Origin: a bacterium
Lineage (GTDB): Bacteria; Patescibacteriota; Saccharimonadia; Saccharimonadales; SZUA-47
Assembly (NCBI GenBank): GCA_030428125.1
Contig: JAUIBF010000001.1
Coordinates: forward strand, 362,383-426,382
Direction: 5' to 3'
DNA length: 64,000 bases
The position numbers and the translations under genes are program-made. How positions within the stretch are numbered: position 1 is the stretch's first letter; each line of letters begins with the position of its first letter. The notes under the pieces were generated by a model, which saw only the letters and a program-made list of their open reading frames with translations, did not search any database and was not told the DNA's origin. This document shows, piece by piece, positions 6,476 through 43,001 of the stretch.

Positions 6476-9400
6476 ATGGCGGATAATAATAGCTTTAGCG
6501 CAAAAGATTTTGTGCATTTACATAATCATACTCATTACAGCTTGCTGGACGGCTTGCAGAAGATTAAGCCCATGATCTCGCATGTTAAAGAGCTGGGTAT
6601 GGAAGCTGTTGCTATGACTGATCACGGAACAATGTCCGGGGTAATTGAATTTTACAAAGAGGCAGGTGAACAAGATGTAAAGCCGGTTATCGGCATGGAG
6701 ACATACATTGCCTCCCGAAAACATACCGACAAGGAGCCGGGCAAGGACAAGCTGAATTTTCACTTAATACTGATAGCCATGAACGAGACAGGCTATAAGA
6801 ATTTGATGCGCCTCAGCACTATAGCGAATTTAGACGGTTATTATTATCGACCCAGAATTGACCATGAGCTGCTAGAGAAGTATAACGAGGGCTTAATTGT
6901 GCTATCAGGCTGTATTGGTGGTGAGGTTGGAGATGCACTGCGTCAGAATCAGTATGACCAAGCCGTAGAAATTGCAAAATGGTACAAAAAAATATTCGGT
7001 GATAGGTATTATTTAGAGCTACAAGATCATGGCCACCCAGACCATCCACACAAGTGGGATGAACAAGTCGCAGTAAATAAACAGTTGATAGAACTCTCAG
7101 AACACCTGGACATCTCACCTGTTGTAACTTGTGACGCGCACTATCTCAAAAAAGAGGACCAGGAAGCTCATGAAATACTGCTATGTGTGCAGACCGGATC
7201 TTTCCTGGACGAGGAAAAAAGGATGAGCCTCAAGGAATTCGAGTTGTTTGTCGCAGACCCCGTTGAAATTAACAAGCGATGGAAAGATACGTTGCCAGAA
7301 GCTATTACTAACACAAAAAAGATTGCAGATCGCTGCAAAATTGAAATAGAACTAGGTAAAATCTTAATTCCTAAGTTCCCACTACCTAAAGGCGTCACTG
7401 AAAAATCATATCTAGATGAATGTGTTTACCGAGGGCTCATAAAAAAATACGGTGATGACGGGCCTTCAAAACAAACAAATAAACTAAAAGTTTCTGATGC
7501 TAAGAAGCTGCTCCCTAAAGAAGTTCTAGAGCGAGCACAATTTGAATTGCAGGTTGTTGATCAAATGGGCTTCAACGGCTACTTCCTTATTATTGCTGAT
7601 TTTATGGACTGGGGTAAGGCTCAGGGAATCGTGTTCGGACCAGGAAGAGGTAGTGCGGCTGGATCAATCATTGCCTATGCGCTCGGCATAACAGAGCTAG
7701 ACCCTCTTGAGTACGACCTTCTTTTTGAACGTTTTTTGAATCCCGACAGGATAAGTATGCCGGATATCGATATAGATATTCAGGATTCACGTCGTGACGA
7801 AGTAATTCAGTATTGTGTAGACAAGTACGGCAGCGATAGAGTTGCCAACATAGTAACATTCGGTAAGATGGCTGCTCGTAATGCAGTAAGAGATGTATCA
7901 AGGGTTTTGAGGGTTCCGTACGGCGAAGCGGATAGGTTAGCGAAAATGATTCCTCCACCAATCCAGGGTAGACACATTCCACTAGCAGCTTCGCTAAAAG
8001 AGAATAAAGATTTGGCTAACGAATATGAAAACAATGAGATTGCTAAAAAAGTATTCGACCTTGCTACAAAACTAGAAGGAACTATTAGAAGTCATGGAGT
8101 CCATGCAGCCGGTGTGGTGATTGCTCCGGATGATATCGTGAACTTTGTACCACTAGAAAAAGCTCAGAAAGGGGTTGTCTCGACACAGTACTCCATGAAT
8201 CCGGTAGAAGAACTCGGATTGCTTAAGATGGACTTTTTAGGCCTATCTAATCTTACGATTATTAATAATGCTTTGAGAATTATAAAAAAAGTCTACAACA
8301 AAGAAATTGATATCAATACTGTGCCACTTGATGACAAAAAGACTTATGAGCTACTACAAAGAGGTGAAACTACTGGGATATTTCAGTTTGAATCTTCAGG
8401 GATGAAACGGTACTTAAAAGAGCTAAAGCCCACAGAGTTCAATGATTTAATTGCCATGGGTGCTTTATATCGCCCTGGTCCGTTGACTGCGGGGCTAACG
8501 GATAGCTTCGTTAAGCGAAAAAATGGCCTGGAAGAAGTTTCTTATGTTCACGAGAAGTTTAAGGGTGCTCTAGGTTCTACATTCGGGGTTTTAGTCTACC
8601 AAGAGCAGGTTATGCGTATTTCCAGAGATGTTTGTGGCTTCTCTGGTGGTGATGCCGACACATTGCGTAAGGCAATAGGAAAGAAAAAACGCGATGTGAT
8701 GATAAAAATGAAGAAGCAGTTCATTGAGGGTGGAGAAAAGCACGGTGGTGTCCCGAGAGCTGTAATGGAGAAATTCTGGGAAGATTTAATGGGCTTTGCC
8801 GATTATGCATTCAACAAATCGCATTCGTCATGTTACGGATTAATTTCTTACCAGACTGCATACCTAAAAGCGCACTATCCAGCTGCATTCATGGCTGCAC
8901 TAATGACTAGTGATTATGATGATACGGAACGACTGACTATTGAAATGAATGAATGTCAACACATGGGAATCTCAGTACTGCCACCTGATATAAACGAATC
9001 ATTTGTAGAATTTGCTATTGTTCCGGGTAAAGATGAAATACGTTTCGGGATGAGTGCGATAAAAAATGTCGGTGTGGGAGCAGTAGAGGAAATATTGGCC
9101 GAACGAAAATCAGGTCCTTTCGTAAGTCTAGAGGATTTCTTTAACAGAGTAAGCTCAAGATCCGTAAACCGAAAAACTATTGAAAGTTTGATTAAAACAG
9201 GTGCTTTTGACAAGTTTGGTACCAGGTCTCTTCTGCTAAACAATATCGATGCAATGATTTCATATTCCCAGAAAAGACAGAAAGAAAAAGAAAGTGGTCA
9301 AGTAGATTTATTCGGGGGCTCAGGTGATGAGGCCACCGTTACAACAGAAATAACTCTTGGGCCTGAAGATACTAAGTATACAGAATCAGATTACTTGCAA

Positions 9401-21468: not shown

Positions 21469-22080
21469 ATGGCAGAACCTCAGCCAATGGGTGGGGTTCA
21501 AGTTTTAGATGCGAAATCAGTAGATTTGTGTCCGTGGGTAGAATTTTATCCGGAAGTTTTAACGGATGATGAAGATATATCTAGTTACTGGTTAACCACA
21601 GCTATGCTAATTGAGGCGATACACGACTTTGGTGTAAAGAACCTGGAATCTGAGTTTGCAAGAATTAAGGTTAGAGACGGAAGCGATCTAGTCGCTCTAA
21701 AGTTCGGAGAACATACTCAAGACCAGTGGACCAGATATGCAACTTCGGGAATGTTTGGGGTCGACATAGACCCAATAATCGAGCTAGGTTACAAACTCGA
21801 TAGTTTAGTTGATTTTGAGCATAACGGAGAAGTTGTAGTCTATCGGTCAGAAGGTTTTCACGACCTTCACATAGATGGAAATAAAAAAAGGCCGATTAGC
21901 GTTAGGCGTTGTTTGCTGACTCTAGATGGAGAGAAAATTAATACATTTGGGAATCCTCAGACAAAACAAATCGTTTCATCGCTAACGGTTCCTGGCAGTG
22001 CAGTTACTATCAGTCATGGTGCTATTAGACATGCAGCAAGATACGAAGGCGAGAACTACGCAGTATACATCCAGTCTTAA
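21469..22080 (+). CDS. hypothetical protein (orphan), possibly a double-stranded beta-helix fold
   Basis: 203 aa. The ATG lies 1 nt after the nusA stop. The LHID...TVPGSAVTISHGAIRHAARY spacing is reminiscent of HxD...H 2OG/Fe(II)-oxygenase-like proteins, but this is a weak call by eye. Confidence 0.5.
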   Translation: MAEPQPMGGVQVLDAKSVDLCPWVEFYPEVLTDDEDISSYWLTTAMLIEAIHDFGVKNLESEFARIKVRDGSDLVALKFGEHTQDQWTRYATSGMFGVDIDPIIELGYKLDSLVDFEHNGEVVVYRSEGFHDLHIDGNKKRPISVRRCLLTLDGEKINTFGNPQTKQIVSSLTVPGSAVTISHGAIRHAARYEGENYAVYIQS

Positions 22081-22087
22081 TAAGTAA

Positions 22088-22114
22088 TTAGCACTCGGGG
22101 TTGACGAGTGCTAA
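22088..22114. promoter_or_regulatory. CIRCE operator (HrcA binding site) upstream of clpC
   Basis: TTAGCACTC-GGGGTTGAC-GAGTGCTAA, a perfect match to the CIRCE consensus TTAGCACTC-N9-GAGTGCTAA. Confidence 0.85.
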
Positions 22115-22130
22115 TTTGCTAATATATACT
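22101..22130 (+). promoter_or_regulatory. clpC promoter (leaderless geometry)
   Basis: TTGACG(22101-22106, inside CIRCE)-N18-TATACT(22125-22130), then 7 nt to the ATG at 22138. Confidence 0.65.
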
Positions 22131-22137
22131 TGGGCGT

Positions 22138-24627
22138 ATGAATAATAACGATGACTTTCAAGACTTCTTGCATAACCTAAGCGATAATGCGCTTCAGAGT
22201 CTGAAGCATGCTGATGCTATTGCTCGTGCTGCTGGTTCTGCCTACGTAGGCACAGAACACTTGTTACTTGGTGTTTTAGCTCAAGAATCGTCTATGGGTG
22301 CCAAGTTACTCAAAGATAATGGTGTAACTCTAGAAAAAGCACGACTTGCTATGAACTTGAAGCCTCAAACCATTGTTATGAGTATGGGTGCAAAAGGTTT
22401 GTCAGAAGCTGCTAAGTTAACGCTAAAAATGAGTTGGGAAGTTGCTCAAGAATATGCGCAAGAAACATGTGGGACTGAACACATCGTCTACAGTATTTTG
22501 AGCCAGAAAAATGCTTCTGCGACTGTACTGCTAAAAAACATGAATGTCCGAACCGATGAAGTGTTGAATGAGCTAGAAGCTCTATTAAATAGACAAAGTT
22601 ATGAAAGCGCTGATAGTACTGGTACAACAAAGAGGCGTCGCAAAGGTAAGAAAACACTCCTAGACCAGTACTCTACAGATTTAACATTACAGGCAAAAGA
22701 GAACAAATTAGACCCTGTCGTCGGTCGTGAGATGCAGATTAGACGATTAGTCACAATCCTAAATCGTCGTACTAAAAATAATCCGGTCCTAATCGGAGAA
22801 CCCGGTGTAGGTAAAACTGCAATAGTTGAAGGTGTAGCTACTAGAATTGCTGCCGATGATGTACCTGATGCCTTAGTTGACAAGCGAATTGTAATGCTTG
22901 ATCTGGCTGCAATGATTGCTGGTACTAAGTACCGTGGTGAGTTTGAAGACAGACTAAAAAAGGTCATGAAAGAACTAGAGTCAGACGACCAGACAATCGT
23001 ATTCATAGATGAAGTTCATCAACTTGTGGGTGCAGGCTCTGCAGAAGGTTCAATGGATGCTGGTAACATCTTAAAACCAGCGCTTGCTCGTGGAAAAATA
23101 CAGATGAGTGGCGCTACTACAACGGATGAATACACTAAACATATCGAAAAAGATGCAGCTCTAGAGCGTCGCTTACAACCTATTATCGTCCCAGAAACTA
23201 CAGAACAAGAAACCTTGGCTATCCTAAGGGGGTTAAAAAAACATTATGAGGATTTTCACGCTGTAAAAATTAGCGATGAAGTATTAGTCGACACAGTACA
23301 TTTAGCAGGACGCTACATCCAAGACCGGTATATGCCTGACAAGGCTATAGACTTGCTTGATGAAACCGCAGCTCATCTGCGTGTAGATAAAGGAAAAACT
23401 CCACCGCGAGTTAGAGAACTGCAAAAGGAGCGAAAATTGGTTCAGGTAAGAATTGATGACGCTGTTGACGCTGAAGATTACGAAAAAGCAGCTCGAGAAA
23501 AACAACGAGCAAGCCAGATTGATTCCGAGCTTGCTGAGCTTGCTAAATCCGATAAAGGTGCAAAACGCTTGAAAGTATCCAGTGACGATATCGCCGATAC
23601 TGTCTCAAGGATGACAGGCGTGCCTGTTAGTAAAGTTATTCGTTCAGAGGTTAAATACTTGCTAAATCTAGAAGACAACCTAGGAAAACACGTCATCGGT
23701 CAGAGCGAAGCTGTAGAAGCAGTCTCAAAAGCTGTGCGACGTTCACGCAGCGGCGTATCAAGTGAGAAACGTCCAATCGGTTCATTTATTTTCATGGGTC
23801 CTACCGGTGTTGGTAAAACTGAGCTAGCTCGTGTTCTGGCTTCTGAGTTTTTCGGCAACAAAGACGCTCTAATTAAGATTGATATGAGTGAGTTTTCTGA
23901 AAAGCATACAAGTTCACGACTGGTAGGAGCACCAGCAGGTTATGTTGGATATGATGATGGTGGACAACTGACTGATAAAATACGCCGTCAACCGTACTCC
24001 GTGGTGTTGTTCGATGAAATAGAAAAGGCTCATCCCGACGTGTTCAATATGCTCCTCCAGATTCTAGAAGATGGAGTGTTGACAGATGGTAAAGGTCGTA
24101 AGATTAACTTCACAAACACAATTATCATCATGACTAGTAACGTCGGAGCCGACAAGCTTCAGAAAGAAGCCAGATTGGGCTTTAGCGCCGATGATAAAAC
24201 TGATTTCAAGAACCTTGATGAAATGCACTCTAAAAACCAAGAAGATGTTAAAAGCGAACTAAAGAAATTGATGAGGCCGGAGCTACTTAACAGAATTGAC
24301 AAAGTATTAGTATTTAGAGCCTTGACTAAACCCGATGCCACTAAGATAGTAGACTTACAACTACAGGAACTTAAAGGTAGACTCGTTAGACAGGGGGTAA
24401 GCATTGATGCTTCGAAAGCTGCTAAAGAATATTTAGTAGACAAAGGATATGATGCAAAAAATGGCGCTAGACCATTGCGTAGGCTAATCCAAGATGACAT
24501 TGAGAATTATATAGCCGACAAGCTAATTTCTGATGAGTTGCCAAAAGGCTCGGTAGTAAAAATCGGTGTTAAAAAGGGTGAACTCGATTTCTCTGTAACT
24601 CACGAGACTAAAACTACTAAAAAGTAA
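22138..24627 (+). CDS. clpC: ATP-dependent Clp protease ATP-binding subunit ClpC
   Basis: 829 aa with two Clp_N repeats, Walker A sites [10 protein letters not shown] and [10 protein letters not shown], and a UVR-like linker ([17 protein letters not shown]). Confidence 0.92.
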
Positions 24628-24654: not shown

Positions 24655-25608
24655 ATGAGAATTAAAACTGTTCTAGGTATGACTTTAACAGTCGTAATAA
24701 TGGCGACTAGTATTTGGATAGTCACAAACCAGCAAGCCATCGTAGACTGGTGGAAACTAAGAGATTATCAAGCTTCTGCAGAGATTATCCAATTGGTTAC
24801 AGATTCTGGTATGAGCGAGGAAGGAGAGCGTTTATTCTTCATTCACGCTCCAGAACTTCTTGATAAAGAGGGTTTTAAAGGTAAGTGCGACATCGGCGAA
24901 GAAACTATAATCCTAGGTTGCTATATAACGCACGACAAAATTTATATCTTCAATGTTAACGATGAAAGATTAGGTGGAATAGAAGAAGTTACAGCAGCAC
25001 ATGAAATGTTGCACGCCGTCTACGACAGGTTAAATGACTCAGTTAAAGAGGAGCTTGAGCCGATACTTCTAAGTACGTTTGAGGATTTAAATGATGACCG
25101 ACTAAACAATACTATCGAAAGTTATCGCGAGCGCGACCCAAGCATAGTAGTTAATGAGCTTCACTCTATTCTTGCCACTGAAGTTCGAGAGTTACCTACA
25201 GAGCTCGAAGAGCATTATAGTAAGTATTTTGACGACAGATTAGAAGTCGTGACGCTTGCGGAAGCTTATGAAGCTGAATTTACAAACCTAGAGACCCAGA
25301 TAGAAGATTATGATAAACAAATTGATGAGCTCGGCAAAGACATAACTTTGCGTCAGTCTGATTTAGAGCAGCTATCAAGTGCTCTGCAAACTGAACAACA
25401 GCAGCTAGAATCCTTGCGCTCAAGTCCGTCGCAGTACAACAATGCTGTTCCTGCCTATAATCAGAAGGTCAGAGAATACAATACTCAACTTAATCAGTTG
25501 AGAGATTTGATCAACTCCTACAACCAGCTAGTAGAACAACGAAATGCAATCGCGGTTGAAGAGCAAGATTTAATTCAGTCTATCGACAGCAACTACAGCG
25601 AACTGTAA
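24655..25608 (+). CDS. membrane-anchored putative zinc metalloprotease-like protein with a coiled-coil tail
   Basis: 317 aa with an N-terminal TM segment, an HEXXH motif (AAHEMLHAVY) and a Gln/Glu/Leu-rich C-terminal coiled coil. TGgTAAACT lies 7 nt upstream of the ATG. Confidence 0.6.
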   Translation: MRIKTVLGMTLTVVIMATSIWIVTNQQAIVDWWKLRDYQASAEIIQLVTDSGMSEEGERLFFIHAPELLDKEGFKGKCDIGEETIILGCYITHDKIYIFNVNDERLGGIEEVTAAHEMLHAVYDRLNDSVKEELEPILLSTFEDLNDDRLNNTIESYRERDPSIVVNELHSILATEVRELPTELEEHYSKYFDDRLEVVTLAEAYEAEFTNLETQIEDYDKQIDELGKDITLRQSDLEQLSSALQTEQQQLESLRSSPSQYNNAVPAYNQKVREYNTQLNQLRDLINSYNQLVEQRNAIAVEEQDLIQSIDSNYSEL

Positions 25609-25620
25609 ACTAGTTAATAT

Positions 25621-26970
25621 ATGGCTAAAGCAAAAGTTAGATATGAGTGCAGTTCTTGTGGAGCTCAGTATGGTTCATGGGCAGGGAAATGCAATACTTG
25701 TGGCGAGTGGAATACTATCGACAAGCAACTTGATGTTGACAGTGTCGAGATTAAAAAATCTGGACATGTAATAAAAGCTAGTAAAATCTCAGAAATAAAA
25801 GCCAGTTCTAAGAAATCTGAAATAAGGATTTCGACACGTGATAAGCAGTTAGATGAAGTTTTGGGTGGAGGCTTGGTATCTGGAAGTGTAATTTTGCTAG
25901 CTGGCCAACCTGGTATAGGTAAAAGTACTCTTTTGATGCAGGTGGCACATTCTGTGTCTAAAGATAGTGAAGTACTTTATATAAGTGGTGAAGAGTCGGT
26001 AAATCAAGTTGCGTCACGAGCAGGGCGACTAAATACTGTAAACGATAAACTCGAGCTTGCCTCTAGCACCAACGCAGATGACATAGCTCATACTATCGCC
26101 ACAACAGACAAGGATGTGGTTATTATTGATTCAATTCAAACGATTACTGTGTCCTCTCTAACTTCGGCAGCAGGCACCGTCAGTCAAATAACTAACAGTA
26201 CACAACTACTAACAAAAGCAGCTAAACAGTCAGACACAGTTCTTATTTTAGTTGGTCATGTTACTAAAGAAGGTTCAATCGCTGGCCCTAAGGTTTTAGA
26301 GCATAGTGTAGATGCTGTATTGCAGTTTGAAGGAGACAGATACGGTGGTTTCAAAGTAATTCGTTCGGTAAAGAATCGCTACGGTTCAACAAATGAAGTT
26401 GCAATTTATGAAATGGAAAGTGGAGGATTGAAGGCAGTAAATAATCCATCCGCTGCGTTACTAGAAGAAAGACAAGTTGTTGATGGTTCAGTAGTTCTGG
26501 CGACAATGGAAGGAACTAGGCCAGTGCTGGTTGAAATTCAAGCGTTAGTTAACACGACTAGTTATGGTTATCCAAAGCGCGCTGCCAGTGGATTTGACCT
26601 AAACAGACTTAATTTGCTAGTAGCGATGTTAGAACGACGTACAAAACTGGTACTAAACGACAAAGATATTTATATAAATGTTGTAGGTGGAATTGCTGTA
26701 AACGAACCAGCAGCAGATCTTGCCATTGCTATGGCGGTAGCAAGTGCCTGCAAAGGCATGCTACTGGCCAAAAACGCTGTTGTTTTTGGTGAAGTTGGCT
26801 TATCAGGAGAAGTGCGTCATGTGCCTCACATTGATAAGCGCATAGCTGAGGCAAAAAAGCTTGGATTCGAAGGTGCGATTGGACCAATGGTTAAATCAGG
26901 TAAGACGCCTGACTATCTGACTAGTGTTAGAGATGTTCGTTCTGCTTTAAATACCTTTTTAGAAAAGTAG
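25621..26970 (+). CDS. radA: DNA repair protein RadA/Sms
   Basis: 449 aa with zinc finger CSSCGAQYGSWAGKCNTCGEW, Walker A GQPGIGKST, a KNRYGST motif and a Lon-like C-terminal domain. Confidence 0.93.
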   Translation: MAKAKVRYECSSCGAQYGSWAGKCNTCGEWNTIDKQLDVDSVEIKKSGHVIKASKISEIKASSKKSEIRISTRDKQLDEVLGGGLVSGSVILLAGQPGIGKSTLLMQVAHSVSKDSEVLYISGEESVNQVASRAGRLNTVNDKLELASSTNADDIAHTIATTDKDVVIIDSIQTITVSSLTSAAGTVSQITNSTQLLTKAAKQSDTVLILVGHVTKEGSIAGPKVLEHSVDAVLQFEGDRYGGFKVIRSVKNRYGSTNEVAIYEMESGGLKAVNNPSAALLEERQVVDGSVVLATMEGTRPVLVEIQALVNTTSYGYPKRAASGFDLNRLNLLVAMLERRTKLVLNDKDIYINVVGGIAVNEPAADLAIAMAVASACKGMLLAKNAVVFGEVGLSGEVRHVPHIDKRIAEAKKLGFEGAIGPMVKSGKTPDYLTSVRDVRSALNTFLEK

Positions 26971-40871: not shown

Positions 40872-42143
40872 ATGAAACTTCATATTGAACGTAAAGAAGA
40901 CACGCTAGCAATGATTGATATCTCTGCTACTGAAGACGAATTGGCAAAGATTAAGCAAAAGGTACTAAAGAAGCTACAGCCGCAGGTAAAAGTAGCGGGC
41001 TTCAGAGACGGTAAAGTACCACTAGAAGTTGTCGAGAAGAACATTGACGGCCAGAGACTGCAAACAGAATTCATCGACGAAGCAATCAATACTCTATACA
41101 TCGCAGCTCTACGTGAAGACAGAATTCGACCAGTCGGACAACCAAAAGTAGAGATTAAGAAGTTCGTACCTTTTACGACATTAGATGTTGAGTTAGAGCT
41201 TCCGGTTGTTGGTGAGGTTAAGCTTCCTGATTACAAAAAACTAAACGTTAAAAGACCTGAAGTTAAGGTTGAAGCAAAGCAAGTTACTGAAGTCATAGAA
41301 AACTTACGTCTTCGTGCTGCAGAAAAAGAAGAAGTGAAACGTGCCGCAAAAGATGGTGATGAAGCTGTAATAGATTTTAAAGGTGTAGACGCTAAAGGCG
41401 AAGACGTTAAGGGTGCTGATGGTAACGATTACCCACTGGCGCTAGGTTCAGGAACATTTATCCCAGGGTTTGAAGAAAATGTTGTCGGAATGAAGCCAGG
41501 AGATGATAAAGAGTTCAAAGTTACCTTTCCTAAAGATTACGGCGCTAAAGCTCTGCAGAATGCAAAAGTAACCTTTACCGTAAAACTTAAAAAAGTAATG
41601 GAAGTGAAAAAGCCTAAAGCAGATGACGAGCTTGCTAAGAAGGTGGGCCCATTCGAGACACTAGCTGATTTGAAAAAAGATATTAAGAAACAACTAGAGC
41701 ATGACGCGAAGCACAAAGCAGAGCGTGACTACGAAGCAGCAATAGTTGAAGCCGTAACTGAAAAGACCAAGGTAAAGATTCCTGAAAGTCTGATTACCGA
41801 ACAAGAAGATATGGTGATTAATGAAGTAAAGCAAAACACAGTTCAAAGAGGCTTGACCTACCAAGAGTACCTAAAACAATTAGGTGTGAGTGAAGAGGAG
41901 TACCGAAAGACTGAGATTAATAAAGAAGCAGAACGCCGGATTAAAGCAGGATTAGTTTTGTCAGAAATTGCTGATATCGAAGGTATTGATGTTACTCCTG
42001 AAGAATTAGAATCTAGACTGCAACAGCTAAAGGGCCAGTACCAAGACAAGCAAATGCAAGCTCAGCTTGATCAGCCAGAAAATCGTCGAGAAATAAACGC
42101 TCGTTTGCGATCTGAAAAAGTTATTAACCTCCTGAAGAAGTAA
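40872..42143 (+). CDS. tig: trigger factor
   Basis: 423 aa with ribosome-binding signature AGFRDGKVP, a central FKBP-type PPIase segment (IDFKG...GFEENVVGMKPGD) and a C-terminal helical domain. Confidence 0.92.
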   Translation: MKLHIERKEDTLAMIDISATEDELAKIKQKVLKKLQPQVKVAGFRDGKVPLEVVEKNIDGQRLQTEFIDEAINTLYIAALREDRIRPVGQPKVEIKKFVPFTTLDVELELPVVGEVKLPDYKKLNVKRPEVKVEAKQVTEVIENLRLRAAEKEEVKRAAKDGDEAVIDFKGVDAKGEDVKGADGNDYPLALGSGTFIPGFEENVVGMKPGDDKEFKVTFPKDYGAKALQNAKVTFTVKLKKVMEVKKPKADDELAKKVGPFETLADLKKDIKKQLEHDAKHKAERDYEAAIVEAVTEKTKVKIPESLITEQEDMVINEVKQNTVQRGLTYQEYLKQLGVSEEEYRKTEINKEAERRIKAGLVLSEIADIEGIDVTPEELESRLQQLKGQYQDKQMQAQLDQPENRREINARLRSEKVINLLKK

Positions 42144-42153
42144 CAGCTACAAA

Positions 42154-42372
42154 ATGGATAGACTAGAACCTGGTGTTGATTCTTTATTTAGTGCTGCCGA
42201 TTTACGTAACGCAGCAGAAGCCAGCCCTGACCCTGAACAGTGTCGCCGGACAGCAGCCTGGGCTATAAAAGGGGTTGCTGACACTGGAGTCCCAGATGAT
42301 GTGGCTACTGAATATTTCAAAATTGTTGCAAGTAAATTTCAATACTTAGCACTCAAGCTTGACGAGTGCTAA
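42154..42372 (+). CDS. hypothetical 72-aa ORF whose last nine codons are the clpP CIRCE operator
   Basis: GNN-rich codons look coding, but there is no SD or promoter, and the 3' end ([10 protein letters not shown]-stop) coincides exactly with CIRCE at 42346-42372. Confidence 0.35.
42346..42372. promoter_or_regulatory. CIRCE operator (HrcA binding site) upstream of clpP
   Basis: TTAGCACTC-AAGCTTGAC-GAGTGCTAA, a perfect consensus match. Confidence 0.85.
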
Positions 42373-42388
42373 GTATAGAGTGTATATT
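42359..42388 (+). promoter_or_regulatory. clpP promoter (leaderless geometry)
   Basis: TTGACG(42359-42364, inside CIRCE)-N18-TATATT(42383-42388), then 7 nt to the ATG at 42396. Confidence 0.65.
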
Positions 42389-42395
42389 CAATATT

Positions 42396-43001
42396 ATGAA
42401 AGACGAGAATTCTAATCCAACAAGTTCAGTTTTAGTACCAACAGTCATTGAGTCTGACGGTCGAATGGAGAGGGCATATGATATTTATAGTCGCTTGCTT
42501 AAAGAGCGAATTATATTTCTAGGAACAGACGTAAATGCACATACTGCGAATCTAATCGTTGCACAGCTTTTGTTTCTTCAAAATGAAGATCCGAAAAAAG
42601 ACATCATGCTTTATATAAACAGCCCTGGTGGAAGTGTTTATGACGGCATGGCTATATTTGATACTATTCGCCATATAAAAAACGACGTCTCTACAGTCGG
42701 CATTGGTTTGCAAGCTAGTATGGGTGCGTTTCTGCTAAGTTCAGGAACTAAAGGTAAACGTTATGTCTTGCCTCACTCTAAAGTCATGATTCACCAGCCA
42801 TCTAGTGGGACTAGAGGTAAAGTCTCAGACATGGAAATCGATTTGAAACAGTCATTAGAACTACGTAAAGAGTTAAATGAAATTCTGGCTAAAAACACTG
42901 GTCAGAAACTATCTAAAATCGAAAAAGACGTCGACAGAGATTTCTGGATGTCTGCACAAGAAGCAGTTGACTACGGTATCGCCGACAAAGTTCTAGGATA
43001 A
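42396..43001 (+). CDS. clpP: ATP-dependent Clp protease proteolytic subunit
   Basis: Catalytic triad context [15 protein letters not shown] and DRDFWMSA. Start set at the ATG 7 nt after the -10; the track ORF begins at 42366. Confidence 0.93.

Follow-up and report, generated by a model that had tools for sequence, protein, structure and literature searches.

The 64,000-nucleotide (nt) stretch of DNA analyzed here, referred to as the window, comes from a member of the Saccharibacteria (Saccharimonadales; SZUA-47; contig JAUIBF010000001.1, positions 362,383 to 426,382 of the forward strand) and carries the genes clpC and clpP. A consensus search of the window placed a perfect CIRCE (an inverted repeat controlling chaperone expression), the operator of the heat-shock repressor HrcA, upstream of clpC at 22088-22114 (+), with no mismatch to TTAGCACTC-N9-GAGTGCTAA. 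A second perfect copy, overlooked in the first-pass annotation of this DNA, lies between tig and clpP at 42346-42372 (+). We consider it likely, on the strength of operator and promoter anatomy and of comparative evidence, that the first element functions as an HrcA operator built into the sigma-70-type promoter of clpC, that the second serves clpP in the same way, and that both belong to an expanded HrcA regulon.

At clpC, the left arm TTAGCACTC occupies 22088-22096, the loop GGGGTTGAC 22097-22105 and the right arm GAGTGCTAA 22106-22114. The -35 hexamer TTGACG (22101-22106, +) takes five bases from the end of the loop and its sixth from the start of the right arm, and it is followed, after an 18-nt spacer, by the -10 hexamer TATACT (22125-22130, +), from which only 7 nt (TGGGCGT) lead to the ATG at 22138. 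The first-pass annotation had reported this repeat together with its -35, spacing, -10 and distance to the ATG, and all of these were reproduced when the sequence was read again. A consensus promoter scan of 21800-22400 returned TTGACG-18-TATACT as the sole promoter-like site, with 10 of 12 matches, and a scan of the same interval for terminators near the repeat was negative.

The clpP element, TTAGCACTC-AAGCTTGAC-GAGTGCTAA, is arranged identically. Its promoter (42359-42388, +) comprises a -35 TTGACG at 42359-42364, an 18-nt spacer and a -10 TATATT at 42383-42388, with the clpP ATG 7 nt further on at 42396, so that the two clp genes share one -35/18 nt/-10/7 nt/ATG geometry. Here the CIRCE lies across the -35 and spacer of the single promoter-like site that reaches 10 of 12 matches in this region, where two others reach 9 of 12, and no terminator was detected at this element by the scan. 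Upstream lies tig (40872-42143). The product encoded at 42396-43001 (+), 201 amino acids (aa) long, matches PF00574 with 263.7 bits and NF001368 with 298.5 bits, the latter above its cut-off. A GTG at 42366, inside the CIRCE, is the mechanical start of the clpP open reading frame (ORF) and is unlikely to be used; the N-terminus predicted from the ATG at 42396 matches those of homologous proteins. Within the gap between tig and clpP, a 72-aa ORF (42154-42372) crosses the CIRCE and takes its stop codon from the TAA of the right arm; no related locus contains a homologue of this ORF, which is probably not a conserved gene.

The first-pass annotation had proposed a search of the whole genome for further CIRCE copies; carried out on the 64-kb window with up to three mismatches allowed, the search yielded the clpP site as the one addition. 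Both matches in the window are perfect, against an expectation of about 0.04, and none of 100 shuffled versions of the window contained two matches. Two perfect 18-base matches therefore speak against a palindrome that arose by chance or persists as a relic without present function, an explanation that we regard as scarcely credible and that is also opposed by conservation of the element between genomes.

To examine this conservation, clpC loci were gathered by a scan with the ClpC protein, using one genome per species, which provided 80 loci. Because the loci were found through the protein, the comparison is independent of the operator. The best five (L001-L005), with ClpC 49-70% identical to that of the window, are all Saccharibacteria or Nanosyncoccus metagenome-assembled genomes; the remaining 75 belong to different phyla. 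Within roughly the 120 nt that precede clpC, a CIRCE is present in 5/5 of these Saccharibacteria reference loci versus 0/75 of the others. In the clpC CIRCE of L002, two substitutions mirror each other (TTGGCACTC...GAGTGCCAA) and the palindrome is retained, and L003 possesses an additional CIRCE directly upstream of clpP. The clpP element is likewise kept in L112, L129, L162 and L188; three of these (L112, L129 and L188) are metagenome contigs syntenic with the window, in the order tig or hisS, CIRCE-clpP, rpoB at 79-83% identity. Across 20 clpC and clpP promoters of Saccharibacteria, the arms are about 99% conserved, a figure to be read with the sampling in mind, as 12 of the 20 were fetched by a perfect-arm pattern and only six protein-anchored sites are unbiased, whereas the flanks have diverged to 44-48%. 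No conserved block other than the CIRCE was found in the upstream flanks of these 20 promoters.

The relatives also reveal how the operator is joined to the promoter. Their -35 hexamers are of the TTG type (TTGACA, TTGCAT, TTGATA and similar) and occupy loop positions 1-6, their -10 elements begin 5-6 nt past the CIRCE, and the spacer measures 17-18 nt. In the clp promoters of the window, both hexamers lie about 4-5 nt further along, the -35 at loop positions 5-9, and the 17-18 nt spacing is kept. This joint shift indicates that the hexamers constitute a real promoter and that operator and -35 are physically interlocked. A set of promoter rules for Saccharibacteria follows: a -35 inside the CIRCE, a spacer of 17-18 nt and an ATG 6-7 nt past the -10.

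Another idea is that the palindrome acts mainly as RNA, forming a 3' stem-loop that ends or stabilizes the upstream transcript, namely that of orf203 at clpC or of tig and the 72-aa ORF at clpP. The predicted folds of the two elements are indeed stable, with energies of -19.7 and -20.2 kcal/mol and z values around -4.5 to -4.9, and the clpC palindrome lies just 8 nt past the orf203 stop codon. Nevertheless, a U-tract is absent and the terminator scan was empty at both sites, the exact CIRCE sequence of both arms is conserved beyond what mere base pairing would require, the loop holds a conserved -35, and the repeat precedes six gene families whatever the upstream gene. Such a role is therefore very improbable. 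The intrinsic-terminator reading was likewise rejected: the hairpin is stable, at about -20 kcal/mol, but has no U-tract. The upstream gene itself, orf203 (21469-22080, 203 aa), situated between nusA and the clpC CIRCE, matched no Pfam or NCBIfam model and has no homologue in the related clpC loci, and it is apparently lineage-specific.

To place the clp operators within a wider regulon, metagenomes were scanned for the lineage-style CIRCE, defined by a loop starting with TTG. At least 120 stretches were retrieved from mixed taxa, including Streptococcus-like hrcA loci, and Saccharibacteria loci were picked from them by synteny and similarity. Among the matches listed, 93 downstream genes could be classified: 40 hrcA, 16 dnaK, 7 dnaJ, 7 htpG-like, 7 clpB, 6 clpC, 4 clpP, 3 groES and 3 hsp20. 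Lineage contigs with an hrcA-grpE-dnaK-dnaJ cluster bear a perfect CIRCE with TTGACA in its loop upstream of hrcA, an autoregulatory arrangement, and single contigs of Saccharibacteria type hold CIRCEs at hrcA, dnaK and dnaJ. At the dnaK promoters the CIRCE is doubled, the copies being spaced about 45-50 nt apart, with the -35 in the first and the second in the leader (L103:2960-3031, L104:1668-1739, L113:3304-3376 and L186:5183-5259), whereas the clp genes have one; tandem versus single operators may explain differing induction amplitudes. A clpB gene, encoding a form without the N-domain, also follows a CIRCE on a contig of 820 kb that shares 66-73% identity with the window in rpoB, rpoC and fusA, and clpB lies behind further CIRCEs at L098:1554, L166:4420 and L190:9498 (minus strand). 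The ClpB proteins of Saccharibacteria-type contigs, encoded behind CIRCE promoters, measure 711-728 aa and lack the N-terminal Clp_N domain, as in L144:541-2676. Outside Saccharibacteria, groES-groEL of a Parcubacteria-type member of the Patescibacteria (L088:1223-3327) is preceded by a CIRCE with TTGACT in its loop, which indicates that the -35-embedded operator design reaches beyond Saccharibacteria. Taken together, the comparative data describe a coherent regulon of hrcA, dnaK, dnaJ, clpB, clpC and clpP. Since CIRCE stands before all six, a single repressor appears to couple folding by chaperones with degradation by the Clp machine in a small genome.

Alternative regulators of clp genes were sought in the same sequences. 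The CtsR box was defined as the tandem heptad A/GGTCAAA-NAN-A/GGTCAAA. In agreement with the earlier statement that no CtsR heptad repeats are visible here, the window contains 10 matches against 11.07 expected, none of them near clpC or clpP, and no CtsR box was found in the 20 Saccharibacteria clpC and clpP promoter regions. Control by HspR through its HspR-associated inverted repeat (HAIR) was considered and rejected: neither the window nor the 20 clp promoters contain such an operator, and the lone HAIR-like match is a CIRCE arm. The first-pass annotation had further suggested that HrcA has taken over the Clp regulon. Control of clp genes through HrcA and CIRCE, rather than through CtsR, is supported by the clpP twin, by the 5/5 versus 0/75 distribution at clpC, by the CIRCE at clpB and by the presence of hrcA in the lineage. 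The phrase "taken over", by contrast, presumes an ancestral CtsR. CtsR is a regulator of Firmicutes, and we know of no evidence for an ancestral CtsR system in this lineage; for these reasons, "expanded HrcA regulon" is the safer wording.

The repressor itself departs from the classical form. HrcA proteins of the lineage are about 235-245 aa long and match both PF03444 and PF01628; their close homologues carry the NCBI label "[Candidatus Saccharibacteria bacterium]" and the Joint Genome Institute (JGI) name "heat-inducible transcriptional repressor". In one representative, P0048 (L201:10001-10708), residues 3-78 align to residues 15-92 of the structure 1STZ, corresponding to the winged helix (E = 3.8e-16). 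Short HrcA proteins of 226-245 aa occur in Saccharibacteria and other Patescibacteria (L201, L118, L163, L116, L085 and others); they keep the winged helix and a C-terminal block and lack about 100 internal residues relative to classical HrcA. Against the curated model TIGR00331, the short form scores 186.7 bits, just below the cut-off of 197.2, compared with 287.9 for a classical control, and its match falls into two stretches, of which the first covers model positions 1-124 of 338. Because the score is below the HrcA cut-off, the NCBI name reads only "transcriptional regulator". The absent segment presumably corresponds to the inserted dimerizing domain of 1STZ; our literature search found no published HrcA domain boundaries. 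For the short HrcA, structure prediction with AlphaFold2 from 28 close homologues gave a poor model, with a mean predicted local distance difference test (pLDDT) score of 47 and only the winged helix modeled confidently. A curated HrcA-family model of 264 positions, NF003033, covers shorter HrcAs, indicating that the short form is not unprecedented.

The gene behind the CIRCE at 22088-22114 encodes, at 22138-24627 (+), a protein of 829 aa. Pfam models place two Clp_N repeats and two AAA+ modules in it, along with a ClpB_D2-small domain. Its middle domain is short, its two Walker A motifs lie at residues 220 and 554, and residues 679-681 form a ClpP-docking loop, LGF, of the [LIV]-G-[FL] type. 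Scores against the curated ClpB and ClpA models were both under cut-off, and no ClpC-specific curated model is listed. The architecture and the LGF loop together identify the product as a ClpC-type unfoldase. Downstream, after a 27-nt gap, follows a gene for a 317-aa coiled-coil protein (24655-25608, +), and 12 nt later radA (25621-26970, +; TIGR00416, 515 bits). Both may be co-transcribed with clpC, but the status of this putative operon is uncertain because the coiled-coil gene and radA each have a TAAACT 7-9 nt before the ATG.

The short distance between promoter and start codon also extends beyond the clp genes. No Shine-Dalgarno (SD) sequence was found before clpC or clpP. Throughout the window, the first genes of operons often show TANNNT 6-9 nt before the start and no SD sequence (starts at 6476, 11645 on the minus strand, 16863, 22138, 29922, 36365, 42396, 43044 and 56948), whereas internal genes have one. 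Given this pattern, and with the -10 only 7 nt from the ATG, the clpC and clpP mRNAs are probably leaderless or near-leaderless, and the distribution suggests that leaderless mRNAs are widespread in this organism.

These features lead us to propose a mechanism. With both arms occupied by an HrcA dimer, the -35 and the start of the spacer would be covered and RNA polymerase thereby excluded; a steric block is envisaged because the -35 sits inside the operator, across loop and right arm, and the spacer begins with bases of the right arm. Upon accumulation of unfolded proteins or a rise in temperature, HrcA would lose its DNA-binding form. In the classical model, described for Bacillus subtilis, Chlamydia trachomatis and Helicobacter pylori (PMC6032397), GroEL (GroE) keeps HrcA active and is titrated away by unfolded proteins. 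The clpC and clpP promoters would then fire and give rise to mRNAs that are probably leaderless. We infer HrcA binding, repression, the inducing signal and the part of GroEL at the clp promoters from the sequence features described above.

Several observations weigh against the proposal that HrcA governs clpC and clpP in this organism. Among about 40 ORFs of the 64-kb window scanned with Pfam or NCBIfam, no hrcA, groESL or dnaK was found. A CIRCE at groES was met only in the Parcubacteria-type L088 and not in Saccharibacteria, and the promoter comparison is partly biased by the way in which its sequences were fetched. With about 100 residues missing and a score below cut-off, neither dimerization nor dependence on GroEL should be assumed for the short HrcA. 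Expression data from the cultivated Saccharibacterium TM7x (Nanosynbacter lyticus; bioRxiv 10.1101/2022.03.25.485537, supplementary file 2), which possesses GroES and GroEL, are ambiguous but advise caution. In stable symbiosis compared with initial encounter, groES, groEL, dnaK, dnaJ and grpE are down by log2 values of 1.0-2.9, whereas clpP (+0.61) and clpB (+0.33) are slightly up and a putative clpC orthologue, a Clp ATPase near radA, changes by only -0.52. The clp genes thus do not behave there as one block with the chaperones, in a contrast that is not heat shock.

Operator number or extra inputs may underlie this non-uniform behavior. A rival model is dual control, in which the HrcA operator is real but a second regulator or promoter also acts on clpC and clpP, so that HrcA sets only part of their expression, as for streptococcal clpP. 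The opposite direction of clpP and clpB relative to dnaK and groESL in that one contrast would fit such a model, as would the single operator at clp genes versus two at dnaK; furthermore, with no terminator ahead of either CIRCE, transcription could read through from tig or the nusA operon. On the other side, the 20 clp promoter regions are devoid of CtsR and HAIR boxes, their upstream flanks hold no conserved block outside the CIRCE, and the sole sites with 10 of 12 promoter matches are the CIRCE-embedded ones, the others in the clpP region reaching 9 of 12. Dual control is judged unlikely though still plausible, and the operator-promoter fusion acting through HrcA is retained as the preferred explanation.

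A bolder proposal may be advanced tentatively, as a possibility that we ourselves hold to be doubtful: the whole proteostasis network of Saccharibacteria, perhaps of Patescibacteria, could be under a single minimal HrcA whose operator sits in the -35 of leaderless promoters. The network would comprise DnaK/DnaJ/GrpE, ClpB, ClpC and ClpP, and possibly Hsp20, HtpG and GroESL. If this were true, dimerization and stress sensing must differ from those of the GroEL-titrated textbook HrcA, and a short HrcA would act as the chief stress regulator throughout a radiation of phylum rank whose transcriptional control is barely known. Transcriptional regulation in the Candidate Phyla Radiation (CPR)/Patescibacteria is little known in general, and the clpC locus offers a clear operator-promoter pair. 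As Saccharibacteria are described as cultivable and genetically manipulable (PMC10633639), the regulon is directly testable.

Comparison with known systems helps to define what is shared and what is particular. A close textbook reference is the class I regulon of B. subtilis, comprising dnaK and groESL. The 9-N9-9 consensus is identical, HrcA has the same winged helix, and the Saccharibacteria lineage likewise possesses an hrcA-grpE-dnaK-dnaJ cluster with an autoregulatory operator. In B. subtilis, CIRCE lies downstream of the transcription start and ahead of the coding region, whereas in Saccharibacteria it forms one unit with the -35 and spacer, the transcripts appear leaderless, HrcA has about 100 aa fewer, and clpC, clpP and clpB are among the targets. 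In the literature, groESL has been described as the sole invariant component of HrcA's regulon (PMC545781).

The Mollicutes provide a close parallel for an enlarged regulon, since their HrcA controls the dnaK operon as well as clpB and lon (PMC5138195). In both groups the genome is reduced, HrcA is the sole recognizable stress regulator, some CIRCEs are in tandem, and CIRCE stands before clpB, encoding a Clp-family ATPase, and before a protease gene. The protease is Lon in Mollicutes, whereas it is ClpC-ClpP, together with clpB, in Saccharibacteria, which belong to the phylum Patescibacteria and whose regulon is predicted from sequence. Saccharibacteria represent a further example, beside Mollicutes, of a reduced genome in which heat-shock control has collapsed onto HrcA. 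The first-pass annotation's view that clp genes are rarely under HrcA is by and large correct, but it omitted clpB and lon of Mollicutes.

Streptococcal clpP is reported to be under dual regulation by CIRCE and CtsR (Chastanet and Msadek 2003, cited in PMC6305308). As presented in that citation, it shares with Saccharibacteria a CIRCE on the clpP promoter and differs in having CtsR boxes, of which the 20 Saccharibacteria clp promoters have none. Oenococcus oeni (PMC6305308) is a mirror image: in both cases one repressor serves the chaperone as well as the clp genes and the second of the classical systems is missing, but O. oeni employs CtsR without HrcA/CIRCE and extends it to dnaK and groEL, whereas Saccharibacteria show HrcA/CIRCE without CtsR boxes. 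In H. pylori (PMC6032397), the operators of HrcA likewise lie across core promoter elements, and GroE helps HrcA to bind there; in contrast to the Saccharibacteria case, H. pylori requires the co-repressor HspR, its clp genes lie outside the HrcA regulon, and its operators are CIRCE-like and imperfect. Our literature search returned no paper linking HrcA with Saccharibacteria, Patescibacteria or TM7x. The HrcA/CIRCE system itself is textbook knowledge, and its principle is unchanged by the case described here; what is new is the Saccharibacteria lineage, ClpC-ClpP as targets with CIRCE as their sole operator, and a -35-embedded, apparently leaderless promoter design.

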